Below, piece by piece: positions 1-33,911 of a stretch of DNA of 64,000 bases. Under the pieces are notes generated by a model, which had not been told where the DNA came from, searched no databases, and saw nothing but the letters and a program-made list of their open reading frames with translations. The stretch is from Thermoanaerobaculia bacterium. Lineage in GTDB: Bacteria; Acidobacteriota; Thermoanaerobaculia; Multivoradales; JAHZIX01. How positions within the stretch are numbered: the stretch's first letter is position 1; every line of letters begins with the position of its first letter. The stretch covers positions 67,175-131,174 of the forward strand of contig JALXFE010000182.1 of assembly GCA_027069135.1 (NCBI GenBank), read 5' to 3'. Position numbers and translations under genes: made by a program.

Positions 1-1186
1 CATCCTGTTGGGCAACTATTTCAAAGCCGAGAACCTCCTCGATCTCAAGACTCGGAATGTCCTGCCGAACGATCTGGACCGGGCGACCAACGGCGGCGGG
101 GTTACGTTCTGGCTCAACGTGGCGAAGGCCGAGGCCCCCGGTGGCCGAGCCTTCGAGGAACGAACCGTCGAGGCTGGATTGGCCCACCACACCGGGTGGA
201 CCCTGGATCTGGGCCACGGCGATCTGGACAACGATGGCGACCAGGATTTCTATCTGGCCGGGGATTACGGGACGGATCGGTTGTTTATGAACCGAGGGGA
301 CGGCCGATTCAAAGATGTGACGGCCACAGCGATCGGTTTTGATACCCGCAAGGGAATGAACGTCGACATGGGGGATTACAACCGGGACGGCTACCTCGAT
401 ATCTACGTGACCAACATCACGGACGAGTACATGAAGGAATGCAACATGCTGTGGCACAACAACGGGGACGGAACCTTCGTGGATCTGTCGAGGGAGACCG
501 GGACCTGCGACACGGATTGGGGGTGGGCCGGAAAGTTCGCGGATTTTGACAACGACGGCTGGGAAGATCTCTTCGTTGTGAACGGCCTTCGTTCCGCCGG
601 GGAGCGCAATTACATCCCGGCCCTCCTGGAAATGATCGTGACCCCGAACGTCGATTTTTCCGATATCGACAGCTATCCGGATATCGGGAATATGACCTGG
701 AGTGGCTATCAGAAGCAGCGGCTCTTTCACAATCTCTCGGACGGCACCTTCAAGGAGGTCGCCGGAGCGGCGGGGGTGGACAATGACCTCGACGGTCGGG
801 GTGTCGGCATCGGCGACTTCGACAACGACGGCCGGCTCGATATATACCAGACCAACGCCAACCAGCCCGCCTTGATGTTCCACAACATCGCCGAAAAAAG
901 CGGGCATTGGCTGCAGGTGCAGCTCCGAGGCACGGTGTCGAATCGCGACGCCATCGGAGCCCGGGTGACCCTACGCTCCGGCGGAGTGTCCCAACTGCGG
1001 GAGGTCAACGGTGGCAACGGGTATGCCAGTCAGGAGACCTCCCGACTGCATTTTGGCCTAGGAGCTGCAACCAAAATCGAGTCGTTGGAGATTCGCTGGC
1101 CTTCCGGGATCCTCCAGACCCTGCGGCCGACCCGGGTGGACACTCTCCTCATCATCGACGAAACGCGAAAGGCGGCGAGCTCCTGA
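1..1186 (+). CDS. FG-GAP/VCBS-repeat protein with C-terminal ASPIC/UnbV domain (CRTAC1-like). 5' end lies outside the window.
   Basis: Open frame from the window edge with no start inside. Repeated Dx[DN]xDGxxD calcium-binding-like motifs (DLDNDGDQD, DFDNDGWEDL, DFDNDGRLD). C-terminal '...RDAIGARVTL...GGNGYASQETSRLHFGLG...IRWPSG' is typical of the ASPIC/UnbV domain. Stop TGA at 1184-1186. Confidence 0.8.
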   Translation, partial: ILLGNYFKAENLLDLKTRNVLPNDLDRATNGGGVTFWLNVAKAEAPGGRAFEERTVEAGLAHHTGWTLDLGHGDLDNDGDQDFYLAGDYGTDRLFMNRGDGRFKDVTATAIGFDTRKGMNVDMGDYNRDGYLDIYVTNITDEYMKECNMLWHNNGDGTFVDLSRETGTCDTDWGWAGKFADFDNDGWEDLFVVNGLRSAGERNYIPALLEMIVTPNVDFSDIDSYPDIGNMTWSGYQKQRLFHNLSDGTFKEVAGAAGVDNDLDGRGVGIGDFDNDGRLDIYQTNANQPALMFHNIAEKSGHWLQVQLRGTVSNRDAIGARVTLRSGGVSQLREVNGGNGYASQETSRLHFGLGAATKIESLEIRWPSGILQTLRPTRVDTLLIIDETRKAASS

Positions 1187-4100
1187 TGGCTATCGATAGG
1201 GCTCGTTCCCAGAGGCTGTTTCTGGCCGTTGCATGCTTGGTCCTCGGGGCGACGGTAGGGCCGGTACTCAGGGTCGGGGCAACGAATTCTGTGGAAGAAA
1301 AGCTGTGGCAGCACCGCAATCTCGGAAAGGCCTTCTACGAGAATCCGGCGACGCAATACGAAGCCGTGAGTGAATTGCGCAAGGCTCTGGAGCTCGCACC
1401 GAGCTCGGCGATAGAGAGGGTCAACTACGGGCTCTCCCTGCTCCGGGCCGGCCAGGAAGCCGAAGGCATCGTGGAGTTGGAGAAAGCCCAGAAGCAGGAC
1501 CCTTCGATCCCCCATACCTGGTTCAACCTGGGGATTGCCTACAAGAAGGCCTCGCGCTATGACGATGCCCGCCGGCAACTCGAGGGGATGATCGCTCGGG
1601 TACCGGACGATGCCATCGCCCACTACAACCTCGGGATCCTCTTCAAGCTCGACGGCAATCTGGAGAAGGCCCTGTTCCACCTGCAGCGCGCCGCCCGCCT
1701 CGACCCGACGTTGGCGGGGCCCCATTTTCAGTTGGCGACGGCCTATCGTCAGGCGAAACGGCCGGAGGATACCCGGCGCGCCATGCAGCGCTTTCGTGAG
1801 ATCAAGGCGAAGAAAGGCGACACTACGGAAGATCTGGAGTGGAGCTTCTACTCGGAGCTGGCGGAGGCTCGGCTGCCGGAGCATGCCAAGGCGGTCGGCA
1901 AGGTGGTGTCCCTGCGCCTCGGGGCGGTGGAGGTCTCGGGCGGCTTCGACCCGGGCAGCTCAGGCCTCGTGATCCTGGACCTCGATGGCGACGGAGGCCG
2001 GGACCTGATCGCCTGGTCGAAGGCGGGTATCAAAGCCTTTCGGGACGCCGCGACGAAGGCCCAAGTCGGGCTCGGGAACCTCGAGGGGATTCTCGATATA
2101 GCACCGGCGGATTTCGACAACGACGGATTGACGGATCTCGCGGTGGTTCAAAAGAGTGGGCCGAAGCTGTGGGTCAATACGGGAGGTCGGTTTCGAGCCA
2201 GCCCGACGGAGATGCCCAAGGGCAGCTTTCGGCGTGTCCTTTGGCTGGATGACGATCACGACTACGATCTCGACCTGTTCCTGCTCGGTAGGAGCTCCGC
2301 CCGCTTACGCAACCGGGGGGCGGCCGGGTTTTCTGACGAGACGTCCGGCTTCCCCTTCGCTGCGGGCAACGCGACCGATGCTGTCGTCTTCGACCTCCTC
2401 GCCGACACCCAGGGCTTCGATCTGGCGGTGGTGTACTCCGACCGGCCGGCGGTTCTTTATCGGGACCGCCTAGGGGGTCGCTACGAACGTCAGGAGTTGG
2501 GAGCCGAGCTCCCGGCGGCACGTCGGATCATCGCCCACGACTACGACCACGACAGCTGGACCGACCTGATCGCCGCGGGGGAGCGGGGCCTGGTGCTGCT
2601 CCACAACCAGCAGGCCGGAGGGCTACACCATCGAAAGCTGGTGGCCGTCGCCGGGCCCGAGGTCACGACCTCGGCCCTGGGCTTCGCGGATCTGGAGAAC
2701 CGCGGCGTCAGCGACCTCCTGACGACCGCCGGAGTGCACCGCAACCAGGGCCTTGGCCGCTTCGCCGCGGTCGGCTCGGACCTGGAAGGGACATCCGCCG
2801 TTGCGAGTGCGGATTTCGACGGGGACGGGCGCATCGACCTTGCGACCATCGACGGACGCGGCTCCCTGAAAGTCTGGCGCAACACCACCGAGGGCGGCGG
2901 CTGGCTTGAGGTACGCCTCGAAGGCGTCAAGAACACCCTCCTGGCACAGGGTGCCGAAATCGAAGTCAAGGCCGGCACGCGGTACCAGAAGAAAAGCTAT
3001 CAGGGCACGGCTGTGCACTTCGGTCTGGGGGACGCGAGCCGTGCGGATACGGTGCGCATCACTTGGCCCAATGGCATGATCCAGAACGAAGCTCGCCAAC
3101 CGGGCAACCGGGCGTTCGTCTACAAGGAAGCCCAACGTCTCTCCGGTTCCTGCCCGATGGTCTTTACCTGGAACGGGAAGGGCTTCGAATTCATCACCGA
3201 CGTCCTGGGTGTCGCGCCCCTGGGGGCTGCGGCGGGGGACGGGGAGTACTTTCCCGTGGACCATGACGAATACATCTGGATTCCGGGCAGCTCCCTGGTT
3301 CCGAGAAATGATCGCTACGAGATCCGAATCACCGAGGAGCTTCGAGAGATCGCCTACCTGGACGAGATCCGGTTGATCCCCGTCGATCATCCCGAAGACG
3401 AGGAAATCTTTCATAACGATAAATTCAAGGGTCCTCCCTTTCCGGACTTCCGCCTCTTCGCCGCAGACGAGCGGATCTACCCGGTCGCCGCGCGGGATCA
3501 ACTGCGCCGGGAGGTCCGAGATCGCCTCCTGGCCGCCGACGGGGCCTACGTTGATGGCTTTCGGCGGAATTATTCCGGAATCGGTGAGATGCATACCTTG
3601 GAGCTGGATTTCGCTCCCACGACGGACGCGGCCTCAGCGGTCCTGATCCTCTCCGGTTGGGTCGACTGGGCCGACGGCAGTACCTTCCTGGGGCTGGCCC
3701 AGGAGCGGGGTGACGGCCTTGTGATGCCCTACCTGCAGGTGCGCACACACGAAGGGGGCTGGCAAACGGTGATCGAGGATATGGGAATCCCCGCCGGCAA
3801 ACCTAAAACGATCGCGGTAGACCTCTCCGAGGCCTGGAGCAAGGGGGGGCGGCAGTTTCGCATCGTGACCAATCTCTGCCTTTATTGGGACGAGGTGTTT
3901 CTGATCGACGCCCTTACCCCGTCGGTTCGTCTCGATCCGCTGCAGGCCCAGGAGGCGAAGCTGCGGTTTCGGGGATTCTCCCGGGCGGTGGTGCATGAGA
4001 AGAGATTGCAGCCGGAGCGCTTCGTCTATGCGGATCTTAGGGCCACTTCGATGTGGAATCCGACCCCCGGCCGCTATACCCGCTACGGGGAGGTTCGTTC

Positions 4101-4437
4101 CCTGCTGTGGGCCACCGACGACCGGATGGTCATCATGGGTTCGGGGGACGAGCTAGCCCTATCCTTCGACGCCACTGCCTTGCCTCCTTTGAAGCCAGGC
4201 TGGCGTCGTGATTTCCTCCTCTTTGTCGACGGCTGGGCCAAGGACGGTGATGCCAATACGGCTCACTCACAAACCGTGGAACCCCTTCCGTACCATCGCA
4301 TGCCCCAATATCCCTACGCCGAGCCCGACTCTTTTCCCGACGGCGAGCCCTACCGGCGATACCGGCGAGATTTTAATTCCCGACCCGCCCTCCGATTGAT
4401 TCGACCGTTGGCCGAAAGGAGAGCCCTCGAGCGATGA
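1186..4437 (+). CDS. Large secreted/membrane-anchored protein: N-terminal signal anchor, TPR repeats, FG-GAP repeats, ASPIC/UnbV domain, ~440-aa uncharacterised C-terminal extension.
   Basis: ATG at 1186 overlaps the upstream stop (TGATG). The ORF-track start at 907 would overlap gene 1 and is rejected. Hydrophobic N-terminus 'RLFLAVACLVLGATVG'. TPR-like helices (NLGIAYKKASRYDDARRQLE...AHYNLGILFKLDGNLEKA). FG-GAP motifs (DLDGDGGRD, DFDNDGLTD, DFDGDGRIDL). UnbV signature '...GAEIEVKAGTRYQKKSYQGTAVHFGLG...ITWPNG'. The stop overlaps the next start (ATGA). Confidence 0.8.
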   Translation: MAIDRARSQRLFLAVACLVLGATVGPVLRVGATNSVEEKLWQHRNLGKAFYENPATQYEAVSELRKALELAPSSAIERVNYGLSLLRAGQEAEGIVELEKAQKQDPSIPHTWFNLGIAYKKASRYDDARRQLEGMIARVPDDAIAHYNLGILFKLDGNLEKALFHLQRAARLDPTLAGPHFQLATAYRQAKRPEDTRRAMQRFREIKAKKGDTTEDLEWSFYSELAEARLPEHAKAVGKVVSLRLGAVEVSGGFDPGSSGLVILDLDGDGGRDLIAWSKAGIKAFRDAATKAQVGLGNLEGILDIAPADFDNDGLTDLAVVQKSGPKLWVNTGGRFRASPTEMPKGSFRRVLWLDDDHDYDLDLFLLGRSSARLRNRGAAGFSDETSGFPFAAGNATDAVVFDLLADTQGFDLAVVYSDRPAVLYRDRLGGRYERQELGAELPAARRIIAHDYDHDSWTDLIAAGERGLVLLHNQQAGGLHHRKLVAVAGPEVTTSALGFADLENRGVSDLLTTAGVHRNQGLGRFAAVGSDLEGTSAVASADFDGDGRIDLATIDGRGSLKVWRNTTEGGGWLEVRLEGVKNTLLAQGAEIEVKAGTRYQKKSYQGTAVHFGLGDASRADTVRITWPNGMIQNEARQPGNRAFVYKEAQRLSGSCPMVFTWNGKGFEFITDVLGVAPLGAAAGDGEYFPVDHDEYIWIPGSSLVPRNDRYEIRITEELREIAYLDEIRLIPVDHPEDEEIFHNDKFKGPPFPDFRLFAADERIYPVAARDQLRREVRDRLLAADGAYVDGFRRNYSGIGEMHTLELDFAPTTDAASAVLILSGWVDWADGSTFLGLAQERGDGLVMPYLQVRTHEGGWQTVIEDMGIPAGKPKTIAVDLSEAWSKGGRQFRIVTNLCLYWDEVFLIDALTPSVRLDPLQAQEAKLRFRGFSRAVVHEKRLQPERFVYADLRATSMWNPTPGRYTRYGEVRSLLWATDDRMVIMGSGDELALSFDATALPPLKPGWRRDFLLFVDGWAKDGDANTAHSQTVEPLPYHRMPQYPYAEPDSFPDGEPYRRYRRDFNSRPALRLIRPLAERRALER

Positions 4438-7391
4438 GCACACCAGAAAGTCCCAAGAGCCGCCCGAAGACCGCCGTCCGGGCCAAGAGGCCCAAGGCTT
4501 TACCGCCGGGCTTCAAGCGCCGCCGGCCCGCCCTGGGACGGCGTTTGACCAAGTTGCTCTCCTTCGTCTTCGCCCTCTTCGCGCTCTTGGCGATCAATTC
4601 CACCTACCTGGTGGGGGTGTCGGTGATGGAATGGTGGAACGGCGAGACCTACCAGAACTGGTTCTATCTGAATATGTTTCTTGTGCACCTGCTCCTGGGT
4701 GCCCTGATCCTGTTTCCCATCCTGGTGTTCGGTGTCTGGCATTTCCGGAACACCTACGAGCGGCCCAATCGGCGAGCCGTCAAGGTCGGCGTCGCTCTAT
4801 TTGGATGCTCCCTCGTCCTGCTCGCCAGCGGCATCGTCTTGACGAGGTTGGAAGGGTTGATCGTCGTCAAAGATCCACAGATTCGTTCCATCGCCTATTG
4901 GGCCCATGTGATCACTCCTATTCTCGTGGCCTGGCTTTTCGTCCTGCACCGTCTCGCGGGGAAACGGATTCGGTGGAAAGTCGGCCGGCGGTGGGCCACC
5001 GTGGCGGCGGTGTTTGCCGCCTCCATGCTGCTCTGGCAGGCCCAGGATCCTCGAAGTTGGAACGTCGAGGGGCCGGCTACCGGGGAACAGTATTTCTTCC
5101 CGTCTCTTTCGCGCACCGCGACAGGTGACTTCATTCCGGAAGAGGTCCTGATGAACGATCAATATTGTCTCGAATGTCACGAGGACAGCCATGAGACCTG
5201 GGCCGTTTCCGCGCATCGCTTCAGCTCATTCAATAACCCCGCCTATCTCTTTTCGGTACGCGAGACGAGACGGGTCGCTTTCGAGCGGGACGGTGATGTT
5301 CACGCTTCCCGATTTTGCGCCGGCTGCCACGACCCGGTGGTGTTTTTCTCAGGCAAGTTTGACGATCCGGAATTCGATGACGAGAGCGATCCGACGGGTC
5401 AAGCGGGGATCACTTGCACTGCCTGTCATGCGATCACCCATGTGAACAGTCCGCGGGGGAATTCCGACTACACGATCGAAGAACCGGTGCACTATCCCTT
5501 TGCCTTTGCGGAGAACAAGAGTCTGCGGTGGATCAACCGGCAGCTGGTCAAGGCCAAGCCGGAGTTCCACAAAAAGACTTTCTTGAAACCGCTGCACAAA
5601 TCGCCGGAGTTCTGCGGTACCTGTCATAAGGTCCATCTTCCCGAGGAGTTGAACAAGTACAAATGGCTGAGGGCTCAGAATCACTACGACTCCTATCATC
5701 TCTCGGGGGTCTCCGGGCACGGCGTCAGCAGCTTTTATTATCCCGAGAAGGCCGAGGAGAGCTGCAACGGCTGCCATATGGAGTTGCAGCCCTCGGAGCA
5801 ATTCGCCGCCGCGAGCTTCGACACCTCCGGGGAACGAACGATCCACGACCATCAATTCCCCAGCGCGAACTCGGCGATTCCTCACTTGCTCGACATGCCA
5901 AGTTGGGTCTTGGAGCGTCACCGCGCATTTAACGTCGGGGCCATGAGGCTCGATATCTTCGGCCTCCGGGAGGAGGGGCGGATCGACGGCGAACAGATGG
6001 CTCCATTACGCCCTGAGGTTCCGACTGTCAAGCCCGGCGAAACGTACCTTCTGGACGTCGTCATCCGGACCCTGAAGCTGGGCCATCATTTCACCCAGGG
6101 GACGACGGATTCAAACGAAATATGGCTTGACGTTCGGGTGACCGGTCAGCGTGCCACCGGCATCGAGACCTTTGGCCGGAGCGGTGGCCTGGGGGCGCGG
6201 AATCAAGTCGATCCCTGGTCTCATTTTGTAAACTCCTATGTTCTCGATCGTCATGGACATCGTATCGATCGGCGCAACGCTCAAGATATTTTCGTCTCCC
6301 TCTACAACCACCAAATTCCGCCGGGAGCTGCATCGACGATCCACTATCGTCTGGAGGTTCCGGAGGATGTCCGCGGACCGATCACCATCGAGGCGGACCT
6401 CTACTACCGCAAATTCGATACCCGGTTCATGGAGCATCTCTCAGACAGCGGCTCAGCCGTCAACGAGCTTCCAGTGTTGAGGCTGGCTTCCGACCGCATC
6501 GTTCTACCCGTCGCGGGAGTCGGAGTCGAGATCGCCGGATCTTCTTCTCCGATTCCCGAGTGGGAGCGCTGGAACGACTACGGGATCGGTCTGTTGCTCA
6601 AGGGGGGGAAGACCAAGGGGGAGCTGCGGCAGGCCGAGGAAGCCTTTCGACGGGTTGAAGCCCTGGGCCGTCCGGAGGGTCCGCTGAATCTCGCTCGGGT
6701 CTACATCGCCCAGGGTACGGTGCGAGACGAGGCCATTGAGGCTCTCGACCGTGCCGCGTCCTTCGATCCTCCAGCGCCACCGTGGACCGTCGCGTGGTTC
6801 ACGGGAATCGTCAACAAACAGAATGGATTCCTCGACAAGGCGATCGCGAACTTCGAATCCATCGTCGCTCTCGACACGGCGGAAACTCGGGATCGCGGGT
6901 TCGATTTTTCCCAGGACTACCGCCTTCTCAACGAGCTGGGGCAGACTCTATTCGAACGAGCCAAGGCGGAGCGGGGGGAGGCTAGAGCCGCCGCCCGGGC
7001 CAGCCTGTTGAACAAGGCGGCGCAACGATTCGAGCAGACGTTGGCGTTGGACCCGGAGAACACCACGGCTCTGTACAACCTCGACCTCGTCTACCGTCAG
7101 CTGGGCCAAGCCGAGGCGGCGGCCCGGTACCGCGATCTCTACCTGGTCTACAAGAGCGACGACAACGCCCGGGATCGGGTGCTGACCATCGCCCGGCGAC
7201 AGGATCCTGCGGCGAATCACAGCGCCGAGGCCATCGTGATTTATGACTTGCACCGCGAGGGTGCTTCGGAGCTGGGGGGGCTCAGTCGTCGGGTGGAGGC
7301 CTTCGTGCTCACGCCTACCGAGTCCCGTCGTACCGAAGAGCCGAAAGTGGCCTCCCTCGGTATCCGAGATCTGGAGGATTCTGAGCGATGA
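4434..7391 (+). CDS. Membrane-anchored multiheme (5x CxxCH) c-type cytochrome with C-terminal TPR repeats.
   Basis: Five predicted TM helices within the first ~200 aa. Five heme-binding motifs: CLECH, CAGCH, CTACH, CGTCH, CNGCH. C-terminal TPR-like region (NLARVYIAQG..., ALYNLDLVYRQLGQAEAA). ATGA overlaps with both neighbouring genes. Confidence 0.8.
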   Translation: MSTPESPKSRPKTAVRAKRPKALPPGFKRRRPALGRRLTKLLSFVFALFALLAINSTYLVGVSVMEWWNGETYQNWFYLNMFLVHLLLGALILFPILVFGVWHFRNTYERPNRRAVKVGVALFGCSLVLLASGIVLTRLEGLIVVKDPQIRSIAYWAHVITPILVAWLFVLHRLAGKRIRWKVGRRWATVAAVFAASMLLWQAQDPRSWNVEGPATGEQYFFPSLSRTATGDFIPEEVLMNDQYCLECHEDSHETWAVSAHRFSSFNNPAYLFSVRETRRVAFERDGDVHASRFCAGCHDPVVFFSGKFDDPEFDDESDPTGQAGITCTACHAITHVNSPRGNSDYTIEEPVHYPFAFAENKSLRWINRQLVKAKPEFHKKTFLKPLHKSPEFCGTCHKVHLPEELNKYKWLRAQNHYDSYHLSGVSGHGVSSFYYPEKAEESCNGCHMELQPSEQFAAASFDTSGERTIHDHQFPSANSAIPHLLDMPSWVLERHRAFNVGAMRLDIFGLREEGRIDGEQMAPLRPEVPTVKPGETYLLDVVIRTLKLGHHFTQGTTDSNEIWLDVRVTGQRATGIETFGRSGGLGARNQVDPWSHFVNSYVLDRHGHRIDRRNAQDIFVSLYNHQIPPGAASTIHYRLEVPEDVRGPITIEADLYYRKFDTRFMEHLSDSGSAVNELPVLRLASDRIVLPVAGVGVEIAGSSSPIPEWERWNDYGIGLLLKGGKTKGELRQAEEAFRRVEALGRPEGPLNLARVYIAQGTVRDEAIEALDRAASFDPPAPPWTVAWFTGIVNKQNGFLDKAIANFESIVALDTAETRDRGFDFSQDYRLLNELGQTLFERAKAERGEARAAARASLLNKAAQRFEQTLALDPENTTALYNLDLVYRQLGQAEAAARYRDLYLVYKSDDNARDRVLTIARRQDPAANHSAEAIVIYDLHREGASELGGLSRRVEAFVLTPTESRRTEEPKVASLGIRDLEDSER

Positions 7392-9286
7392 AACTCTTTG
7401 AGGAAGTCTCCGCCGAAACGTCCACCGACGGTCCACCGCCTGAAGCCTCCCTGCCCGGGGGCGAGGATTGGGAGGTGGTACCTGAGGACGAGGTCCAAGA
7501 TGACGAGATCATCGGCCGCGTCTTCAAGGCTTCTCTGTGGGTCATAGCCGCGGTCATCGTGGGCCTCGGGGCCTTTTTTCTCTTCAGCCAGGACGAGGCC
7601 CTCAGCGAGGAGCGCTCGATCACCGTGGCGGCGCCGGAGGCGATTGGTGAAATCTCGGCGACACCGACGATGCCTTTCAGCGACGTTACCCAAGAGGCTC
7701 GGATCGACTTTGTTCACAACAACGGCGCCTACGGAGACAAGTTGTTGCCGGAGTCTTTGGGCGGCGGCGTCGCCTTTCTGGATTTCGATTCCGACGGTGA
7801 CCAGGATCTCCTTTTTGTCGATAGCGGGGAGTGGGCTCACCAGTCGTCGGTCCTCGAGCCTCCGGTGGCTCTTTATCGCAATGAAGGCGGTTTTCGCTTC
7901 ACCGATGTGACTCGTAGGGCGGGCCTAGAGGATCTGACCTCCACCGGGTCCTATGGCATGGGGGTGGCAGTTGGTGATTACGACGGGGACGGCGATCCCG
8001 ATCTTTTCCTGACGGCCGTCGGATCCAACCGATTGCTGCGCAACGACAGCGGCAGATTTCTCGACGTGACGGACAAGGCCGGGGTTGCCGGCCTCGAGGA
8101 CGATTGGTCCACTTCCGCGGCGTTTCTGGATGTCGATGGCGATCGGGATCTCGACCTGGTGGTCTGTAACTATGTTCGCTGGTCCAAAGAGATCGACTTC
8201 GAACTCGATTTCCGTCTGACGGGAATCGGCCGCGCTTTCGGACCACCCCAGAGCTATGAGGGCTCCTACCCCTACCTTTACCGTAACGACGGGTCCGGGG
8301 TCTTCACGGAGTTCACCGCGGAGTCCGGCTTGAAGGTCGAGAATCCGGCGACGGGAGAGCCGATGGCGAAGTCACTGGCCCTGGCGCCGGCGGATGTCGA
8401 CGGCGACGGTTGGATGGATTTCATCGTCGCCAACGACACGGTGCGCAATTTCTTCTTCCACAACCAGGGTGGGACGTTCGAGGAGATTGGCGAGGTCCTG
8501 GGAGTCGCCTACGACCGCAACGGCAATGCCACCGGCGCTATGGGCGTCGACGTCGGGCACTACCGCAACGATGGCAACCTGGGTTTCCTGATCGGCAACT
8601 TCGCCAACGAGATGAGCACGGTCTATATGAGTCAGGACGACCCGTTGTTTTACGTCGATGAGGCGATCAGCGAAGGGATCGGTGCCCCCAGCCGTAGCGT
8701 CCTGACCTTCGGTCTGTTTCTCTTCGATGCCGATCTCGACGGTCGTCTGGATCTTTTCCAGGCCAACGGCCACCTCGAAAGCGAGATTCAGGCGGTGGAT
8801 CCCAGCCAGACCTACCGGCAGGCGGCACAGATTTTCTGGAATGGCGGCGACGAGGGCTTTCTTCCTCTGGACCCGGGGGCGACAGGGGATCTGAGCCAAC
8901 CGGTCGTCGGACGGGGAGCGGCCTATGCGGACCTCGACGACGATGGCGATCTGGATATCGTACTGACCCAGGTGGCCGGCCCACCGCTGCTGCTGCGCAA
9001 CGACCAGAATTCCGGTCACCATTGGCTGCGCCTACGGCTGGTGAATCCGGGCCCCAATTGGGATGCCATCGGAGCCTGGGTTACGGTGCGCGCTGACGGC
9101 ATCTCGCAGCGGCGCCAGGTAATGCCGACACGAAGCTATCTTTCCCAGGTAGAGTTGGCCCTCACGTTCGGTTTGGGGGACAGTCCAACGGTAGAATCCG
9201 TAACGATTCTCTGGCCCGACGGGCTGGAGGAAGACTTGGGATCCCTGCCGGTGGATCGCCTCCATCGGATAGAGCGGAAACTCTAG
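7388..9286 (+). CDS. FG-GAP/ASPIC-UnbV protein with N-terminal transmembrane anchor (CRTAC1-like).
   Basis: TM segment 'LWVIAAVIVGLGAFFLF' after an acidic cytoplasmic N-terminus. Motifs DFDSDGDQD, DYDGDGDPDL, DVDGDRDLD, DLDDDGDLD. UnbV tail 'NWDAIGAWVTVRADG...LTFGLGDS...ILWPDG'. Start ATGA-coupled to the upstream gene. Confidence 0.8.
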   Translation: MKLFEEVSAETSTDGPPPEASLPGGEDWEVVPEDEVQDDEIIGRVFKASLWVIAAVIVGLGAFFLFSQDEALSEERSITVAAPEAIGEISATPTMPFSDVTQEARIDFVHNNGAYGDKLLPESLGGGVAFLDFDSDGDQDLLFVDSGEWAHQSSVLEPPVALYRNEGGFRFTDVTRRAGLEDLTSTGSYGMGVAVGDYDGDGDPDLFLTAVGSNRLLRNDSGRFLDVTDKAGVAGLEDDWSTSAAFLDVDGDRDLDLVVCNYVRWSKEIDFELDFRLTGIGRAFGPPQSYEGSYPYLYRNDGSGVFTEFTAESGLKVENPATGEPMAKSLALAPADVDGDGWMDFIVANDTVRNFFFHNQGGTFEEIGEVLGVAYDRNGNATGAMGVDVGHYRNDGNLGFLIGNFANEMSTVYMSQDDPLFYVDEAISEGIGAPSRSVLTFGLFLFDADLDGRLDLFQANGHLESEIQAVDPSQTYRQAAQIFWNGGDEGFLPLDPGATGDLSQPVVGRGAAYADLDDDGDLDIVLTQVAGPPLLLRNDQNSGHHWLRLRLVNPGPNWDAIGAWVTVRADGISQRRQVMPTRSYLSQVELALTFGLGDSPTVESVTILWPDGLEEDLGSLPVDRLHRIERKL

Positions 9287-9380
9287 AGGTCTTACCTAGG
9301 GGGCAGGTGCCGGCTTCAGCGCTCAGACCCTCGGGTGGCGGAGTCGGGATCTGCCGGATCGGCATACCTGGAGGACATCG

Positions 9381-11174
9381 ATGAAAGTACCGGCCGCCTT
9401 GATGCTGGCCCTTTTCGCCCTGGGAGGCTGCGGCGCTGAGCCTCCCAGCGCTCCCGAAGCCGCCGACGAGGGCCGGGAGCTCGTCTCGGCCTTCCGTTTC
9501 GAGGAGGTCGGGCGAGAGTCAGGCCTCTCGTTTCACCATTTCTCCGCCGTGCGCGCAGCACTTCTACCGGAGGACAACGGGTCCGGTCTGGCCTTCGGCG
9601 ACTACGACAACGACGGCTACGACGACCTCTATCTCGCCAACCTGGCCGGCCCGGTATTGATGTCCCGCGACGAGCTCCAGGCGACCCGGGAAGGTGGCAA
9701 GCTGTACCGCAATCTGGGTGACGGAACCTTTGAAGATGTCACCGAGACGGCCGGTGTCGAGCATGTCGGGTGGGACGGCGGGGTCCTGTGGGCCGACTTC
9801 AATGGCGACGGTTGGCTCGATCTGCTGCTGACCGGGATCGACGAGATCGCCCTCTTCGAGAATCTGGGCGGCGGAACCTTCGAGGATCGAAGCGCCGCCG
9901 CCGGTCTGGGGGAGACTCCCTGCATGGCCATGGGGGCGACGGCCGGGGATTATGACCGCGATGGCGATCTCGACCTTTACGTACCCTGCTACGTGGAATT
10001 CCCCTGGGAGCGGGCGCGGGATCGCCCGTTGGTAGGGGGGCGCCCGTCCACCATGACGACACCGGCCAACTATCCACCCCAGGCCAATCGGCTTCTGCGC
10101 AACGACGGTGACGGCCGTTTCGAGGACGTTGCAGCTCCCGCCGGGGTCGCCGACCCCCAAGGGCGCGGGCTCCAGGGTACCTTCGTCGATTTCGACGGCG
10201 ACGGCTGGCAGGATCTCTATGTGGCCAACGATCAAAGCTTCGACCGGCTGTTTAGGAACTCCGCCGACGGAACCTTCGAGGACGTCACCATCCCGGCGGG
10301 CACCCGCGACCCGCGGGCGGGTATGGGGATCGGCCTGCACGACTTCGACGACAACGGCCAGGTGGACCTCTTCCTGACCCATTGGGTCGGAGAGCAGAAT
10401 GCCTTGTACCGCAATATGTCGGATGTGGGTGCCTTGCTCTTCGAGGATCGTGTCTACGAGGAGGGCCTAGGCCCCATCGCCGAAGCCCTGGTCGGTTGGG
10501 GAACGGGCTTTGCCGACTTCGATCTGGACGGATTCGAGGATCTCTTCATCGTCCATGGCTCGACGGTCGAAGACGAGTGGACCCTCGATGTTTTGAAGGA
10601 GCCGAAAATGATTCCTCAGGAGCTGATGGTCTTCGCCGGTAGCGACGATGGCTTCGAGGACGTGTCCGCCGCATCCGGAGCGATTTTCAGGGAGAGATTC
10701 GTCGGCCGAGGCATGTCCTTGGCGGATTACGACCGCGACGGGCGGGTGGATGTGGCGGTGCTGGTTCATAACGGGGAGCCCCTACTCTTGCACAACCGCT
10801 CCGAGCCCCGAGGTGGAGCCTGGCTGGGGATCCAACTGGCCAGCGGAGGCAAGAATCGCTGGGCCGTAGGGTCCAAAGTGACCGTTCACTCGACCACGGA
10901 GGACGGTTCCGCCCGCCGTCAGTCCGCCTGGCGGGTGGTGGGGGAGAGCTACGCCGGTACCCATTCGGCGACCTTGCATTTCGGTCTGGGCTCCGCCACC
11001 GCCGCTCGAGTGGAGGTACTATGGCCCGATGGCAAGATCGATCACTTCGGGCCCGTGCCCCTCGACCGAATCTTGGTGCTCCACAAGGGTTCTCCGACCT
11101 GGCATGAGCTACCCGAGGACCCCGTCGATCCCCGCCCCTGGGGGTCGCTTCCTCTCACTGAATTTGGAGACTGA
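9381..11174 (+). CDS. Lipoprotein FG-GAP/ASPIC-UnbV protein (CRTAC1-like).
   Basis: Lipobox signal 'LMLALFALGGC'. SD GGAGGA 5 nt upstream of ATG. Motifs DYDNDGYDDL, DFNGDGWLDL, DYDRDGDLDL, DFDGDGWQDL, DFDDNGQVDL. UnbV tail 'GSKVTVHS...HFGLGSATAARVEVLWPDG'. Confidence 0.8.
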   Translation: MKVPAALMLALFALGGCGAEPPSAPEAADEGRELVSAFRFEEVGRESGLSFHHFSAVRAALLPEDNGSGLAFGDYDNDGYDDLYLANLAGPVLMSRDELQATREGGKLYRNLGDGTFEDVTETAGVEHVGWDGGVLWADFNGDGWLDLLLTGIDEIALFENLGGGTFEDRSAAAGLGETPCMAMGATAGDYDRDGDLDLYVPCYVEFPWERARDRPLVGGRPSTMTTPANYPPQANRLLRNDGDGRFEDVAAPAGVADPQGRGLQGTFVDFDGDGWQDLYVANDQSFDRLFRNSADGTFEDVTIPAGTRDPRAGMGIGLHDFDDNGQVDLFLTHWVGEQNALYRNMSDVGALLFEDRVYEEGLGPIAEALVGWGTGFADFDLDGFEDLFIVHGSTVEDEWTLDVLKEPKMIPQELMVFAGSDDGFEDVSAASGAIFRERFVGRGMSLADYDRDGRVDVAVLVHNGEPLLLHNRSEPRGGAWLGIQLASGGKNRWAVGSKVTVHSTTEDGSARRQSAWRVVGESYAGTHSATLHFGLGSATAARVEVLWPDGKIDHFGPVPLDRILVLHKGSPTWHELPEDPVDPRPWGSLPLTEFGD

Positions 11175-11177
11175 CCT

Positions 11178-11906
11178 ATGAGATTTCCCCAAGTTTTTGT
11201 CCCGGGCGCCGAGGTGGCCCTCGTCGCCTTGAGTCTCGCCGCCTGCACTACCGCGGACAGCACGGCGCCCGGGCCCGGAACCGAGACCGCGGACACATCG
11301 AGCGCCAAGACCGTGACCGGCGGCAAGCCCTATCACGGTCTCTTGGAGTATCGGGCCAAGGACGCCAAACTCGCGTTGGTGCGCCCTACGCTGGTGACGG
11401 CCGCCGAGGCGGCCCTGGCCTCCGGAGTCCGCGTGGTCGGAGTGGCGGCGGACGGTGAGAGCCGTGCCTATCCCCTATATGTCTTGAAGAACCATCAGAT
11501 CGTCAACGATCAGGTAGGGGGAACGCCGATCGCGGCGTCCTGGTGAGCCTCCGAGCAATCGGTCGTGGTTCACGACCGCCGCGTCGGAGAGAAAGAACTG
11601 ACCCTCGGGGTCTCCGGAAAGCTGATCGATGGCAACCTCGTCATGTACGACACGGAGACGGATTCCTTATGGCACCAGGCCTCCGGGGAGGCCAAGGACG
11701 GTGAGTTAGAGGGCCAGCAGCTGGCCGAGCTACCCGCCGAGGAGTGGGGTGTGTATCGCTGGGGAGAGTGGCTCGAGCTCCATCCGGAGACCTTGGTCCT
11801 GACCTGCGCCCACTGCGAGGGTCGTGGGGAAGCCACCGGAACGATCGACGAGTTGCACCGAGAGAAGGCCGAGAGTGAGAAAGGTGATGGACATAAGGAG
11901 GGGTAG
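11178..11906 (+). CDS. DUF3179-family lipoprotein interrupted by a single in-frame TGA (11544-11546). Candidate selenoprotein or recently inactivated gene.
   Basis: Lipobox 'LSLAAC'. The two track ORFs 11178-11546 and 11565-11906 are in the same frame, separated only by the TGA. Sequence around the TGA (...YPLYVLKNHQIVNDQVGGTPIAASW*ASEQSVVVHDRRVGEKELTLGVSGKLIDGNLVMYDTETDSLWHQ...WLELHPETLVLT) matches the DUF3179 core as I recall it (...GGTPvavtYCPLCgtg..fdR.vdg..ltFgvSGlLynsNlvmyDreTeSlWsQ), with the TGA at the position of the first conserved Cys. Confidence 0.5.
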
Positions 11907-12534
11907 CTCCGGGAGGATCCCGGGAGCTCGGAGGCGTCTCGCCGGTCCTGTTCTTCTTCTGGCGGGGTTCCTCTTCGGGGGCCTGGGCTGTGGCGCCCCG
12001 CCGTCCGACGCTCTCCCCGACGCCGCCCAGCCTGCGTCTTCGGCGGCCCAGGTCGCCCGCACGCTGCCAGGCCCTGACTTTGAGCTCCTCGGCCTCGACG
12101 GCGAGCGGCATCGTCTTTCATCCTATCGGGGCCGGATCGTACTGGTGAATTATTGGGCCACCTGGTGCCTCTCCTGCCGTGACGAGATTCCGGTGCTCAA
12201 CCGTCTGCACGAAGAATTTGCCAACCGCGGTGTCGCCATCGTCGGCGTCGCCACCGACGAAGATGCCGAGACCAAAGTCGTGCCCTACGTCGAAAAGATG
12301 GCCATGGCCTATCCCGTCCTTCTGGATCCTCAGGCGGTCAGCGCGTCGATTTTCGGCGGCTTCGCCGGCTATCCCAGTACCTTTATCCTCGATCCCCAGG
12401 GCCTGATCTACTCCTCCTATCTGGGCGCACAGGAAGAGAAGACCTTCGCCGACGACCTTCGCTACCTCCTGCAAGCTGCACCCAGCGAAGGCGCCACCCT
12501 TCCCGCGGGAGCCATTTCACACCCGGTGGAATAG
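11887..12534 (+). CDS. TlpA/ResA-like periplasmic thiol:disulfide oxidoreductase (thioredoxin fold), lipoprotein.
   Basis: WCxxC active site 'YWATWCLSCRDEIP'. Lipobox 'LGCG'. The track ORF starts at 11824, but the internal ATG at 11887 (MDIRR...) gives the signal peptide. Overlaps the 3' end of the DUF3179 gene. Confidence 0.8.
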   Translation: MDIRRGSSGRIPGARRRLAGPVLLLAGFLFGGLGCGAPPSDALPDAAQPASSAAQVARTLPGPDFELLGLDGERHRLSSYRGRIVLVNYWATWCLSCRDEIPVLNRLHEEFANRGVAIVGVATDEDAETKVVPYVEKMAMAYPVLLDPQAVSASIFGGFAGYPSTFILDPQGLIYSSYLGAQEEKTFADDLRYLLQAAPSEGATLPAGAISHPVE

Positions 12535-12640: not shown

Positions 12641-14794
12641 ATGAGCCGACACGCGTTTCAAATCCAAGGCCTCGATTGTGCCGAGGAGGTGGCGATTCTA
12701 AAGCGTGAGCTGGGGCCCTTGGTCGGCGAGGAGTCCCTGGCCTTCGACGTCCTCCGGGGCAAGTTGACGGTCTCCGACGGTTCCGTGACGGCCCTGGAGA
12801 TTCAGCAGGCGGTGGCCCGGACGGGAATGAAAGCCGAGCCTTGGCGCTCGACGGCGGAGCAGGATGGGGAGCGGACCCGGCACCGGACTCTGCAGGGTTC
12901 CCTCACCCTGGCCAGCGGATTGGCCATGATCACTGGCTTCGGTACCCATGCCTGGTTGGCCGGCAGCGTGGTCGAGGCCCTCGGTCACCACGGAGGGCAT
13001 GTCGACGAGGGCGTGCCATGGCTCGCGCGGTGGATCTACACCCTGGCCATCGTGACCGGCGGCTGGACGATCTTTCCCAAGGCCCTCTTGTCGCTGCGCC
13101 GCCGGCGCCCGGATATGAATCTCCTCATGACCGTCGCAGTCACCGGGGCGGTGGGCATCGGCGAATGGTTCGAAGCAGCGACGGTGGCCTTTCTCTTCGC
13201 CCTTTCCAACGCCCTCGAAGCCTGGAGCGTCGGGCGAGCCCGGCGCGCTGTCGAGTCTCTGATGAATCTCTCGCCGACGACGGCCCGAATTCGCGATGCT
13301 GCCGGTGAAGAGAAGGTGCTGCCGGCGGCGGAGGTCCCGATAGGCACCCTGCTCCTGGTACATCCTGGCGAAAAGATCCCTCTCGATGGGCGGGTGATCA
13401 CCGGCGTCAGTGAAGTGGATCAGGCTCCCATCACGGGCGAGAGCCAGCCGGTGGCCAAAGAGCCCGGCGATGATGTCTTCGCCGGCACGGTCAACGGCAG
13501 CGGCGTCCTGGAAGTCGAGGCGACCCGGACGGCGGAAGATACGACCTTGGCCCACATCGTGCGGCTGGTGGAAGAAGCACGATCTCAGCGAGCGCCGAGC
13601 GAGCGCTGGGTGGAGCGATTCGCCCGCATCTACACGCCGGTCGTCATGGGGCTGGCCTTGGCCGTGGCCCTGCTGCCGCCGTTGCTCCTCGGCGGGGCTT
13701 GGGGTGTTTGGTTTTACCGGGCCCTCGTGTTGTTGGTCATCGGCTGTCCCTGCGCCTTGGTCATCTCGACACCGGTCAGCGTGGTGGCTGCTCTGACCTC
13801 CGCCGCTCGCCACGGGATCCTGGTCAAAGGGGGAGCGTTCATCGAGCTGCCGGCGCGCCTCAAGGCCATTGCCTTCGACAAGACCGGAACCCTGACCCGG
13901 GGGGAGCCGTCGGTGGTGGAAGTCGTGCCCTTAGCAGAGCATGACGAGGCCGAGCTCTTGGCCCGAGCGGTGGCCCTCGAGGCCCGAAGCCCCCATCCCA
14001 TAGCCCGGGCCATCCTGCGCTACGCCCGGGAGAAAGGGGTCTCCGCCCAGCCGGCGGAAGAGGTCCAGGCGATCCCCGGCAAGGGCATCGGAGGACTTTT
14101 CGCAGGCAAACCCTTCTGGCTGGGCTCCCACCGGTATCTGGAGGAGCGGGAGCAGGAGACGGAGGAGATTCACCAGCGCCTGGAAGCCATGTCCGACGCC
14201 GGCCAGACGATCGTCGTGGTCGGCAACGACAGCCACGTCTGCGGTTTCATCGCCGTCGCCGATGGCCTGCGTCCGGAGGCCCGGGAAGTGGTCGCCCAAC
14301 TGCGCCGGCAGGGCATTGGCCAGCTCTTGCTCCTCACCGGCGACAACCGTGGCACGGCGGCCGCCGTCGCCCGGGAAGCAGGCCTGGACGACGTCAAGGC
14401 CGAGCTCTTACCGGCGGATAAGGTCGCTGCCGTCGAGGACCTGGCGAAGGCCTATGGAGAGGTCGCCATGGTCGGGGACGGCGTCAACGACGCCCCCGCC
14501 ATGGCCCGCGCCAGCCTGGGCATCGCCATGGGTTCAGCAGGCAGCGACGCCGCCATCGAGTCGGCGGATATCGCCCTGATGGCCGACGACCTCACCAAGC
14601 TCCCCTGGTTGGTGCGCCACTCCCACCGCACCCTCTCCACCATCCGCCAGAACATCGGCTTCGCCCTCGGCCTCAAGCTCGCCGTCTTCGTCCTCGCCAC
14701 CGTAGGCTACGCCTCCCTCTGGATGGCCATCGCCGCCGACATGGGAGCCTCCCTGATCGTCATCGCCAACGGGCTGCGATTGCTGAGGGGGTGA
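12641..14794 (+). CDS. P1B-type heavy-metal-translocating P-type ATPase (Cd/Zn/Cu family).
   Basis: N-terminal HMA-like domain (FQIQGLDCAEEVAILK). TM CPC motif 'VIGCPCALVISTP'. Phosphorylation site 'DKTGTLT'. 'SPHPIARAI' HP motif. 'GDGVNDAPAL' hinge. Confidence 0.9.
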   Translation: MSRHAFQIQGLDCAEEVAILKRELGPLVGEESLAFDVLRGKLTVSDGSVTALEIQQAVARTGMKAEPWRSTAEQDGERTRHRTLQGSLTLASGLAMITGFGTHAWLAGSVVEALGHHGGHVDEGVPWLARWIYTLAIVTGGWTIFPKALLSLRRRRPDMNLLMTVAVTGAVGIGEWFEAATVAFLFALSNALEAWSVGRARRAVESLMNLSPTTARIRDAAGEEKVLPAAEVPIGTLLLVHPGEKIPLDGRVITGVSEVDQAPITGESQPVAKEPGDDVFAGTVNGSGVLEVEATRTAEDTTLAHIVRLVEEARSQRAPSERWVERFARIYTPVVMGLALAVALLPPLLLGGAWGVWFYRALVLLVIGCPCALVISTPVSVVAALTSAARHGILVKGGAFIELPARLKAIAFDKTGTLTRGEPSVVEVVPLAEHDEAELLARAVALEARSPHPIARAILRYAREKGVSAQPAEEVQAIPGKGIGGLFAGKPFWLGSHRYLEEREQETEEIHQRLEAMSDAGQTIVVVGNDSHVCGFIAVADGLRPEAREVVAQLRRQGIGQLLLLTGDNRGTAAAVAREAGLDDVKAELLPADKVAAVEDLAKAYGEVAMVGDGVNDAPAMARASLGIAMGSAGSDAAIESADIALMADDLTKLPWLVRHSHRTLSTIRQNIGFALGLKLAVFVLATVGYASLWMAIAADMGASLIVIANGLRLLRG

Positions 14795-15374: not shown

Positions 15375-18300
15375 TTAACCCCTCCCGCCAGTGATTCGTC
15401 TCTCGACCTCTTTCCAGGCCTTGTCAATCTGCAGGTCGACGCCGATGAACTCCAGGCGGGTGGAGGTTTCCAGTCGGTGGTAGGGGTCGTTGGTGTCGCG
15501 GACGGCGCCGAGCCAGTTGAAGGAGCCGTCGATGTACCAGCGGCGGTCGACGGCCAGGAGCTTGGAGTGGATGCGGGGCACTGGGTGGACCTCGGCACCG
15601 CATTGCCTCAAGTCTTCGGCGACTTCGGCGGCGACCTCCGGGCGGCGGTGGAGGTCGACGCAGTAGAGGATTTTTACCTCGACGCCGCGGTGGTGGGCTT
15701 GCCGTAGCGCTGCGTCGATGCCGTCCGCTTCGATGGCCCGGCGGGTCAGGTAGGGGGAGACGATGAGAACCTGCTCCTGGCTTTCGCGGAGGGCCTCCCG
15801 GAGAGCCTCGCGATGATCTTCGAGGGTTAGGAGCTGGCGGGCCGGGAGCTTGCCCGCCTCGGCCTGCCTCCACAGGTCGGGAGAAGGCGCCACATCGCCG
15901 ATCTCATTCTCCGGGACCTCGAAAATATGAGTCGCCAGGACCCCGGAAGGGCCGGGGCTCATGGGGTCGAAGAGCTCCATGTCGCCGAAGACGAGGAAGG
16001 CGTCCTTGGCACGGGAGACGGCGACGTTGAGCATGTTCTTGCCATCGTCGAAGAAGCGTTTCTTCGGTGCGGTTTCGGCGCAGTAGACGGGGGAGAAGAT
16101 CATGATCTCCCGCTCCGCCCCCTGGAAGGTGTGGACGGTACCGATTTCGGCGATGGGGACAGCGTCCTTCTTCCCGGAGCCTCCTCCCTTGCCAGCGCCT
16201 TTCCCCTCCTTCCGCCGACCGGGGGATTTCGGGGTCAGGGCCTTGATGAGCTCCGTGCGCTGGGCGGAAAAGGGGGTCACCACACCGACCAGTTCCTCGA
16301 GGGGCCGGCCGTCGTAGAAGGCTTCGATTTCCTCCCGGCGCCCATGAAGCCAGCGGGCGATGGCCCAGGCCTCCCCGGCATTGGCCCAACTGCCCCGGAC
16401 CCGCTTCGCCTCGGATCGGACGTGGGCCCAGCCGAAAGCCGGCAAGGGGCTCGAGGGCAGCGCTTCCCGATGGGGTTCCAATTGGCCGCCGTAGACCAGC
16501 TGGTTGCAGTAGCTAATGATCTGAGGCACGCATCGTCGGTGCTCGCGCAGAAAGAGCCCGTCGCGGCGCGGAGAAGCGGTCCAGCGGGTGGCCCGTTGGG
16601 CGAGGCGCAAGAGGCTGCTCGAGCTACAGCGGAAGGGATCGAGATCCTGGGAGCCGGCGTCCAGACCTGCGGCGCGGAGATTTGCCGAGTCGACTCGGCG
16701 GTGGATGCCCCAGATGGGTTCGATCTGGTGCTCGTCGCCGATGACGATGGCTCGTTTGGCCAGCGGCAGCACGGCGGCTCCGATCTCCGGCGCCACCTGT
16801 CCCGCCTCATCTACGATCAACAGATCCAGGGCACCGATCAGAGGGAAGGCGCGGCCTTCCTCCCGGTCGTAGTAGTCGAAGACCCGGGGGGAGCGGAAGA
16901 GGGTCGAGACCAGGGCCGGCGTCAGCTTGGCAAGGCGCCGAAAGCGCAGGAGACGGGCCTGGTCGAGGGGCATGGGGGCGTGTTCGCTGGCGGAGAAGAG
17001 CTCTTCCATCTCCTGCAGCCAGCGGCCCTCCCAATAACGGGCGGCGAGCTGAAAGAGCCGGTGCCTCAGGCCCACGTCGAGGAAGAGGGGAACCGCCCGG
17101 ATCGGTGACGCCGTCGACGCCAATGCCTCCGACAACGGCGACTCGGGGTCCTGAGTCGTCAGCTGCATGCGGATCCACCGCAGGAGCTCGGCCTCTTCCT
17201 CCTCGGGGGCGAGGAGAATTCTTACGTGTCGGAGCAGGGTGGTCTCGAAATTCGAGGATCCGAGCTCCGGGGTGGGCAGCTCCCGTTCGATGAGGGGCCA
17301 GCCGAGCCACCGATCCCGGCGGCGGCGAACCGCCGGGAAGAAGTCGAAGAGCTCCAGGTACCAGGGCAGGTTCCGGCAAGCTCCGAGGAGCTCGGCCCGA
17401 AGCTTGCTCCGGTCCTGATGCAGGCCCTCGAGAGCCCCCAGGCGACGATCCAGGGAGCTCGGATCCCAGGCCTTGGTCACGTCCTTGGCGGCCCGGCGGG
17501 CGGTGGACTCCAGGCGCTGTTTCAGATCTGCGGCGGAGTCCCGAAGCTGCCGTCGAAGCTCCGTCACGACTTTGTCGACGGTGAGCCCGGTAGCGCTGAA
17601 CCCCAGGACCCCTTGCGCCCGGTCGAGGTAGTGGGAATGGGCTTCCTTCACGTAGCGGGAGGTCTCCATCTCGCCCAAGGAGCCCCGCAGGGTATTGCCG
17701 GCCAATTCCGCCGTTTGGTATTTCTTCTCCGGCTCGTTGCGGGTCTGGGATGCGGCGGGAAAGAAGAGTCCGTAGGAGCGGATCTCCGGCAGCCATCGGG
17801 TCGCGAGCCCTTCTTTTTCGTTCTCAGCGGCGGCGTCGAAGCTATCCAGGACATTGGTGACCGCCTGGTTGTTGGTGGAGCAGACGTGGATCAAGGGAGG
17901 TTCGCTACCCTCGAGGGCCCGCTGTACCCACAGGGACGCCACGATGCTCTGGACGAGGGTGGTCTTGCCGGTCCCCGGCGGCCCGTTGACCGCCAGGATC
18001 TCTCCGTCGCGAAGCTCGAGAGCGCAGGCCAGACTCTGGCGTTGGGACGGGCCCAGGGGAAAGCGGCCCGTCATCTGTCCCAGGTGGGAGAGCCCCCCGC
18101 CGGCCCCCGGATCGTCCGGCCCCGCGGCGGGCTTGGCCCCCGGCGCTCGAGCTAGGCTCTGAAGGACCGCCGGAGCCGGATCTATTCCGAGGACAAAGTC
18201 CGCCAGGTCGATGAGGGGCTTGCGAAAGCCTTTCTCGATTTGTTGGACCGCAAAGCGAGGCCCCAGAACTTCGAAATCCTCAAGCTGATACTCCGAGGGC

Positions 18301-30203: not shown

Positions 30204-30248
30204 ACCGCCCGACATCCAGATGAAAGAGTTGAGAGGAAGGGGAGAGAA

Positions 30249-33715: not shown

Positions 33716-33911
33716 CGGGGCATTGTATGCGGTGGAGTCTCCGGGGGGAAACCTTGGCGGGCTTTGCGCCGAGGCGGCAACCGTTTGGATTCTGCCCGAG
33801 CCATTTCGATGGCAGGTATTCCTTGATGTATTATCAGGCTGTGTAGAGAAATTCGAAGAGGTGACCGCAAGGGATGAGGGCCTCCGCCGTCTTCATCGGA
33901 GGTGCCGAACA

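Follow-up and report, generated by a model that had tools for sequence, protein, structure and literature searches.

A putative quinone-linked b/c-type cytochrome with beta-sandwich and TPR domains, and its CRTAC1-like propeller partner, in Thermoanaerobaculia

Here we analyzed a cytochrome gene in a 64,000-nucleotide stretch of a Thermoanaerobaculia bacterium genome (contig JALXFE010000182.1; hereafter "the window"). The gene starts with ATG, encodes 985 residues, and is the only open reading frame (ORF) of the window with more than one CxxCH heme-binding motif. Together with the CRTAC1-like propeller gene directly downstream it forms a two-gene module, in which the propeller is a nearly obligatory and often translationally coupled neighbor. 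The five N-terminal transmembrane (TM) helices of the cytochrome, which the first-pass annotation had taken as a mere anchor, contain four invariant histidines and are therefore no plain anchor; as judged from these residues, they most likely form a diheme cytochrome b domain. By a slight balance of probability, we favor a reading in which the protein is the quinone-pool-linked electron-transfer subunit of an inner-membrane two-gene redox module, probably carrying two b-type and five c-type hemes (b2c5) and docking the propeller. Its modules are known, and their combination and the obligate partner are undescribed.

A two-gene module of cytochrome and propeller

The cytochrome gene overlaps both of its neighbors by 4 bp, its own ATG with the upstream stop and its own stop with the downstream ATG (ATGA at the latter junction). 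At its N-terminus the protein encoded downstream has an acidic tail; it further contains a single TM helix, several calcium loops of the DxDxDG type, and one cysteine. Among solved structures its only relative is CRTAC1 of humans (cartilage acidic protein 1, PDB 9etn; E 1e-12), with which it shares the FG-GAP propeller and UnbV_ASPIC parts; it differs from CRTAC1 in its membrane anchor, in the absence of the EGF-like part, and in its tie to a cytochrome gene. Among genome loci of the cytochrome family with at least 600 nt of downstream sequence, an orthologue of the partner lies immediately downstream on the same strand in 62 of 72, often overlapping the cytochrome gene by 4 bp, and when all ORFs within 8 kb were clustered, 71 of 74 loci contained a member of the propeller family, with no other family found in more than five. 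The earlier suggestion that the TPR (tetratricopeptide repeat) array docks neighboring propeller proteins thus gains strong though indirect support, the propeller being the only recurrent neighbor. Relatives that truly lack the TM domain still adjoin a propeller gene, which in one case lies upstream with the same 4-bp overlap, and in the six loci examined cytochromes with cleavable signal peptides accompany propellers with cleavable signal peptides and TM-bearing cytochromes accompany TM-anchored propellers. CRTAC1-family genes also occur within hydrazine-synthase-like heme-protein clusters of non-anammox bacteria (PMC12758564), which hints at a general link between CRTAC1-like propellers and c-type cytochromes.

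The cytochrome family is large, uncharacterized, and common in nature. A word-indexed search returned more than 6,000 matches, the best 120 of which were full-length with 66–74% identity, came from Acidobacteriota (Thermoanaerobaculia and Vicinamibacteria), Latescibacterota, and unclassified metagenome-assembled genomes, and bore no source names other than "multiheme c-type cytochrome", "tetratricopeptide repeat protein", or "hypothetical". Residues 1–720 (i.e., leaving out the TPR array) were searched exhaustively with HMMER against 50%-identity cluster representatives, of which 2,985 matched at E<1e-3 and 655 reached E<1e-30; the majority were 850–1,000 residues long and matched end to end. 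Scanning one genome per species yielded at least 592 confirmed loci, and the best 80 of these belonged mainly to Planctomycetota, followed by Acidobacteriota (Thermoanaerobaculia and others), Verrucomicrobiota, and a few Pseudomonadota. Cultured carriers include Stieleria mannarensis, Rhodopirellula europaea, R. maiorica, and Pirellulaceae SH467, and the five heme motifs and eight key histidines are present in all four. Full-text literature searches returned no description of the architecture or of the gene pair. The architecture had been called unusual, which is right in that it is unstudied and wrong if taken to mean rare.

Motif scan, hydropathy, and an AlphaFold2 model bore out the layout first noticed, namely five TM helices, five CxxCH motifs (residues 245–448), and a C-terminal TPR array. 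The full-length model, built on 62 diverse relatives, reached a predicted local distance difference test score (pLDDT) of 91 and a predicted template modeling score (pTM) of 0.88, and a separate model of residues 26–500 had a pLDDT of 92.7. A basic tail is followed in the model by the five helices, a heme domain, an all-beta domain, a TPR-like array, and a disordered end (Table 1); the all-beta domain had been overlooked when the hemes were placed before the repeats. Lysines plus arginines number 14, 5, and 7 in the predicted cytoplasmic segments, in comparison with 0 and 3 in the periplasmic loops. This distribution therefore shows a predicted topology with the N-terminus inside and everything beyond TM5 in the periplasm, which answers the first-pass question of which side the heme domain faces. 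Covalent heme attachment likewise requires a periplasmic location of this domain. The protein has 11 cysteines, ten in the CxxCH motifs and one (C125) in TM3.

Table 1. Features of the cytochrome gene and of the surrounding propeller genes (positions within the window)
Feature	Position	Strand	Remarks
Whole gene, b/c-type cytochrome (b part putative) with beta-sandwich and TPR domains	4434..7391	+	985 aa
N-terminal cytoplasmic tail, basic, disordered	4434..4538	+	aa 1-35; 11 Lys+Arg
Membrane domain, five helices, putative diheme cytochrome b	4539..5042	+	aa 36-203
H85 (TM2)	4686-4688	+	conserved membrane His
H103 (TM2)	4740-4742	+	conserved membrane His
H158 (TM4)	4905-4907	+	conserved membrane His
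H172 (TM4)	4947-4949	+	conserved membrane His
Pentaheme c domain, predicted periplasmic	5139..5939	+	aa 236-502
CLECH	5166-5180	+	aa 245
H261	5214-5216	+	invariant non-motif His
CAGCH	5316-5330	+	aa 295
CTACH	5415-5429	+	aa 328
H379	5568-5570	+	invariant non-motif His
CGTCH	5613-5627	+	aa 394
CNGCH	5763-5777	+	aa 444-448
H473	5850-5852	+	invariant non-motif His
Beta-sandwich domain	5940..6509	+	aa 503-692
TPR-like helical array, 14 helices, MamA-like by fold	6558..7226	+	aa 709-931
C-terminal tail, short conserved strand, disorder from aa 955	7227..7388	+	aa 932-985
Partner gene, CRTAC1-like FG-GAP beta-propeller and UnbV_ASPIC, membrane-anchored	7388..9286	+	632 aa
Upstream gene, signal/anchor, TPR, then FG-GAP propeller and UnbV_ASPIC	1186..4437	+	likely start ATG 1186
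Third FG-GAP/UnbV_ASPIC paralogue, predicted lipoprotein, signal ending LGGC	9381..11174	+
Fourth FG-GAP/UnbV_ASPIC paralogue, 5' end cut by window edge	8..1186	+

Membrane and periplasmic domains of the cytochrome

Hydropathy supports the five helices, which the AlphaFold2 model places at residues 36–69, 76–107, 113–137, 148–175, and 181–203. H85 and H103 on TM2 and H158 and H172 on TM4 are retained in 55 of the 56 members of the diverse set (62 relatives at 28–54% identity) that have the TM domain, and in 79–80 of 80 sequences when the query is joined with 79 genome loci. In a 26-sequence alignment of the TM domain, these four histidines and G133 in TM3 are the sole invariant columns, with R173 nearly so (invariant across the 79 genome loci and found in 48 of 57 diverse members). 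The two histidines of each helix lie on one helical face, with an i+18 spacing on TM2 corresponding to 0 degrees and an i+14 spacing on TM4 to 320 degrees. In depth, H85 and H158 are about 10 residues from the periplasmic ends of their helices in the model, and H103 and H172 are 3–4 residues from the cytoplasmic ends. Judged from sequence and model, such a geometry is what would be expected of two hemes held between two helices and stacked across the membrane.

The closest resemblance was to the PF01292 group, which includes FdnI, FdoI, and HyaC, the gamma subunits of formate dehydrogenase-N and hydrogenase-1. The likeness consists of a four-helix core, a periplasmic-side histidine on TM2, and an i/i+14 histidine pair on TM4 in register; the cytochrome differs by an extra fifth helix, and all scores are under family thresholds. 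PF01292 was touched below threshold by 4 of the 26 aligned members (best 26.1 bits compared to a cut-off of 30.1, E 8e-6), with the match spanning profile positions 19–161 of 179, and the query protein itself had no match to this Pfam model. When the TM profile was aligned by hhalign with E. coli FdnI/FdoI/HyaC (E 0.001, probability 21%, 135 columns covering TM1–TM4), H85, H158, and H172 fell on FdnI H57, H155, and H169, which serve as heme ligands in the FdnI structure, with the fourth ligand on TM1; against six PF01292 proteins the E value was 6e-4. The family has no conserved histidine on TM1, and its fourth invariant histidine, H103, sits at the cytoplasmic end of TM2. In the protein studied here, which has no TM1 histidine, H103 would take the role of the TM1 ligand, a position that has a parallel in helix B of cytochrome b of the bc1 complex. 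Single FdnI or CybB, the CybB/YceJ/YodB group, and MsrQ were also considered as relatives of the TM domain and discarded because their hhalign alignments were not significant; NOX, Dcytb, and cytochrome b appeared in the Foldseek search of the residue 26–500 model only at E 1–5, which is no evidence.

The five heme motifs are invariant in the 62 relatives and in the 79 genome loci, so the motif set is not due to chance. At heme 1, seven divergent members (P0198, P0210, P0216, P0254, P0256, P0263, and P0225) have CX4CH instead of CX2CH (e.g., CGQAGCH), and conservation within the family is highest at the heme 2 motif, R-F-C-A-G-C-H-D-P, which was selected as the signature in the locus scan and aligns with the active-site heme 2 of the polysulfide-reducing protein MccSep. 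In the AlphaFold2 model the heme domain consists mostly of short helices. Profile searches placed the protein in no characterized family: in Pfam only PF13435 (Cytochrome_C554; 28.4 bits) was above its gathering cut-off, individual TPR models stayed just below theirs, and nothing came near a cut-off in NCBIfam, including the ExtKL model (20.6 bits compared to a cut-off of 250). The first-pass statement that the protein is not of the NapC/NirT/TorC, NrfB, or HAO/OmcA kind held up, with no NapC/NirT, NrfA/NrfB, HAO, or MtrC/OmcA model of either database above threshold and no PF03264 (NapC/NirT) match at E ≤ 0.01. For the NrfA, HAO, and octaheme group, neither a Pfam or NCBIfam match nor a CxxCK motif was found, and the sole link was a distant one to IhOCC.

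The fused b/c layout of CbcL had not been considered in the first pass. The heme domain has known distant relatives, which a profile of residues 232–502 found among solved structures. In the heme 1–3 region it matched c552, a pentaheme cytochrome from Thermochromatium tepidum (5ze8; E 5.3e-8), and MccSep (9wt8, 9wt9; E 5.4e-5); matches to the Ignicoccus octaheme protein IhOCC (4qo5; E 1.6e-4, over hemes 1–2) and to cytochrome c554 (1bvb; E 0.01) were weaker. MccSep is the ExtKL of Geobacter, a protein with a five-heme domain followed by an immunoglobulin (Ig)-like domain, in which four hemes are bis-His, His122 and Cys239 are the ligands of heme 2, Sec325 acts as the catalytic residue, and a substrate channel runs between the domains (bioRxiv 10.1101/2025.11.18.688581); a "PHC family" of pentaheme plus Ig-like proteins has been proposed (PMC11976967). 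Like c552 and MccSep, the cytochrome has five CxxCH motifs followed by a beta-sandwich, and the three share a histidine twelve residues past heme 1 and the C-x-x-C-H-M of heme 5. By the profile matches, hemes 1–3 are distantly homologous to those of pentaheme-plus-Ig-like cytochromes. Around hemes 4 and 5 only C-x-x-C-H-M aligns, and a profile of residues 380–705 detected no similarity to solved proteins from heme 4 through the beta-sandwich. In contrast to the cytochrome, c552 and MccSep are soluble, about 435–450 residues long, and without a membrane domain or TPR. The cytochrome further differs from MccSep in having no counterpart of Cys239 or Sec325: its only spare cysteine is C125 in TM3 and it contains no in-frame TGA, so without a usable spare cysteine or selenocysteine MccSep chemistry is excluded.

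Beyond the invariant H261, H379, and H473, the c domain contains H388; of 80 closer sequences, 76 (the query and 75 of 79 genome loci) have histidine at this position, and many distant members have Met, Leu, or Phe. From the four invariant distal histidines we had first inferred a heme with open coordination, and the histidine at position 388 in most closer sequences weakens this; in the present protein, the sequence suggests that all five c-hemes may be bis-His through H261, H379, H388, H473, and H551. The last of these belongs to the beta-sandwich, a domain of about 190 residues between the heme domain and the TPR array that is all-beta in the AlphaFold2 model, and lies in an invariant motif, G-H551-x-F-x-x-G-T-x-D-S-N-E-x-W (H551 at 6084–6086). 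No Pfam model covers this domain, and neither Foldseek nor profile search demonstrated homology to the corresponding domain of c552 or the Ig-like domain of MccSep.

Of the roughly 300 residues of TPR first annotated, the repeat assignment stood and the length did not, as the array spans about 225 residues (709–931). The TPR domain dominated the Foldseek list of the full-length model, matching MamA and consensus TPR proteins with target-normalized TM-scores (template modeling scores) up to 0.88, and phmmer found CTPR proteins at E 3e-9.

Proposed function and its alternatives

We lean, if only narrowly, toward the view that the cytochrome is an electron-transfer subunit of the b2c5 type, linked to the quinone pool and docking the propeller. 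Mechanistically, TM2 and TM4 would ligate two b-hemes as in FdnI and HyaC, one through H85 and H158 on the periplasmic side and one through H103 and H172 on the cytoplasmic side, and this bundle would trade electrons with the quinone pool. FdnI-type bundles move electrons inward to quinone, and CbcL is thought to move them outward. The five c-hemes would carry the electron wire on into the periplasm, the beta-sandwich would supply H551 to a heme or reaction pocket, and the TPR array may be the docking surface for the propeller, and the beta-sandwich/TPR platform would hold the membrane-anchored propeller, at which the binding or conversion of a periplasmic substrate would take place. Much more tentatively, and as a possibility we would not put beyond about one chance in three, the cassette may be the core of an unrecognized quinone-coupled periplasmic oxidoreductase, common in Planctomycetota, Acidobacteriota, and Verrucomicrobiota, in which the calcium propeller binds or converts the substrate at an interface with a c-heme and the H551 motif.

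The closest functional analogue, compared by architecture alone, would be CbcL of Geobacter sulfurreducens, an inner-membrane b/c cytochrome and menaquinol oxidase with a diheme b domain and nine c-hemes (PMC9129911). Both would combine a diheme b membrane domain with a periplasmic multiheme c domain in one polypeptide; CbcL differs in its six TM helices, nine bis-His c-hemes, and lack of a beta-sandwich, TPR, or propeller partner. The NapC/NirT/CymA/NrfH/TorC proteins have the same presumed role, from quinone pool to periplasmic hemes, and differ in having a single TM helix, four or five hemes, and no b-heme. None of the comparison systems (CbcL, FdnI/HyaC, c552/MccSep) has a TPR array or a propeller partner.

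Several results weigh against the quinone-linked, propeller-docking reading. For the TM domain, the hhalign probability was 21–28%, no Pfam threshold was reached, its profile had no real match among PDB sequences, and Foldseek found nothing in the PDB at E ≤ 0.001 for the model of residues 26–500. The ligand of the cytoplasmic-side heme would sit at the end of TM2, unlike the TM1 ligand of FdnI, and no quinone site was identified in the cytochrome. The TM domain is absent altogether from some relatives and is therefore not essential for the periplasmic function. One apparent case of such a relative, P0234, proved to be a gene-call artefact, as five helices and all four histidines are encoded in frame just upstream of the called start (L088 7440–8000). 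Finally, the propeller family has no heme motif, no conserved cysteine, and one conserved histidine, and is thus unlike a cofactor-bearing redox enzyme.

The lack of a cofactor motif in the propeller would also suit a pure quinol dehydrogenase relay of the CbcL or CymA type, in which the b2c5 protein hands electrons to soluble periplasmic carriers or extracellular chains and the TPR array and propeller act as a scaffold or stabilizer. The fused b and multiheme c architecture known from CbcL (PMC9129911) and the potential of the five conserved non-motif histidines to render every c-heme bis-His fit such a relay as well. We nevertheless consider it unlikely: genes for a porin-cytochrome, a periplasmic cytochrome, or other electron-transfer proteins do not recur within the 8-kb neighborhoods, aerobic heterotrophs are among the hosts (e.g., Rhodopirellula and Stieleria), a mere scaffold would not be expected to remain linked once the b domain is lost, and the polar motif around H551 in the beta-sandwich is invariant.

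It is more doubtful again that the five helices are a heme-free anchor with structural or metal-binding histidines, holding a pentaheme protein of the periplasm, an enzyme or carrier like c552 or MccSep, that receives its electrons from soluble cytochromes. Conservation of four histidines, one glycine, and one arginine down to 28% identity, at matched depths on two helices, would not be expected of a passive anchor, and the alignment with the heme ligands of FdnI is in register, even though relatives with only a signal peptide exist and the TM domain found no significant match in Pfam, PDB sequences, or Foldseek. A redox sensor or an assembly factor resembling the CcmI/CycH TPR chaperones, rather than a respiratory component, seems very improbable, since the faint TPR_CcmH_CycH matches in homologues and the frequent binding of client peptides by TPR domains are outweighed by the lack of an output domain, by the lack of any conserved regulator or cytochrome-maturation gene in the same neighborhoods, and by the protein being itself a five-heme cytochrome with an invariant partner.

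Other genes of the window and implications

Four propeller paralogues form a tightly packed same-strand run around the cytochrome gene (window 8–11174, +), and their N-termini differ, one being cut by the window edge and the others consisting of a signal/anchor with TPR, a TM anchor, and a lipoprotein signal. The upstream gene of this run likely starts at ATG 1186 (MAIDRARSQRLFLAV...), which overlaps the preceding stop by one base, while the mechanical TTG start at 907 overlaps the preceding gene. Extra copies of this kind are confined to the smaller part of the loci; same-strand propeller-family ORFs upstream of the cytochrome number 20 over all 74 loci.

Near the cassette, an AhpC/TSA-redoxin (TlpA-like) gene (11824–12534, +) is not recurrent overall; in one relative (L001 9421–9912) a counterpart immediately precedes the cytochrome gene. 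A heavy-metal P1B-type ATPase (TIGR01525, 627 bits; 12641–14794, +) lies a few kb downstream, with no link to the cassette seen in the other loci. A DUF3179 gene (11178–11909, +) contains an in-frame TGA at 11544–11546. With this codon read as cysteine, the Pfam match rose from 43.6 to 144.5 bits and continued past the stop, and the codon is presumably at the position of the first cysteine of the CPLC motif of the family; a stable hairpin (-25 kcal/mol, z -2.7) lies within about 20 nt 3' of the TGA, and Rfam SECIS models gave no match there. The TGA is possibly either a selenocysteine codon or a recent nonsense mutation. Further along, a class II lanthipeptide synthetase (DUF4135 and LANC_like; 21581–24838, +), a C39-peptidase ABC exporter (25314–27542, -), and an O-methyltransferase (20519–21541) probably constitute a lanthipeptide gene cluster. 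A DUF1800/DUF1501 pair, a CHAT-domain protein, and a large helicase carrying a PLD-like nuclease domain are among the other genes of the window, at 28485–31607 (+), 33678–36464 (+), and 15375–18989 (-).

For the propeller family, which is conserved from bacteria to humans and has, to our knowledge, no known biochemistry, the near-obligatory place of a CRTAC1-like gene beside the cytochrome gene offers a lead to function, and the oxidoreductase-core reading, if true, would set the CRTAC1/UnbV_ASPIC family in a biochemical context for the first time. Should the membrane domain bind two b-hemes, the cytochrome would represent a new class of quinone-linked entry or exit for periplasmic electrons in organisms with poorly mapped respiratory chains. 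The cytochrome family is spread over phyla that are dominant in the sea and in soils, among them Planctomycetota, some of which are cultured and partly tractable.

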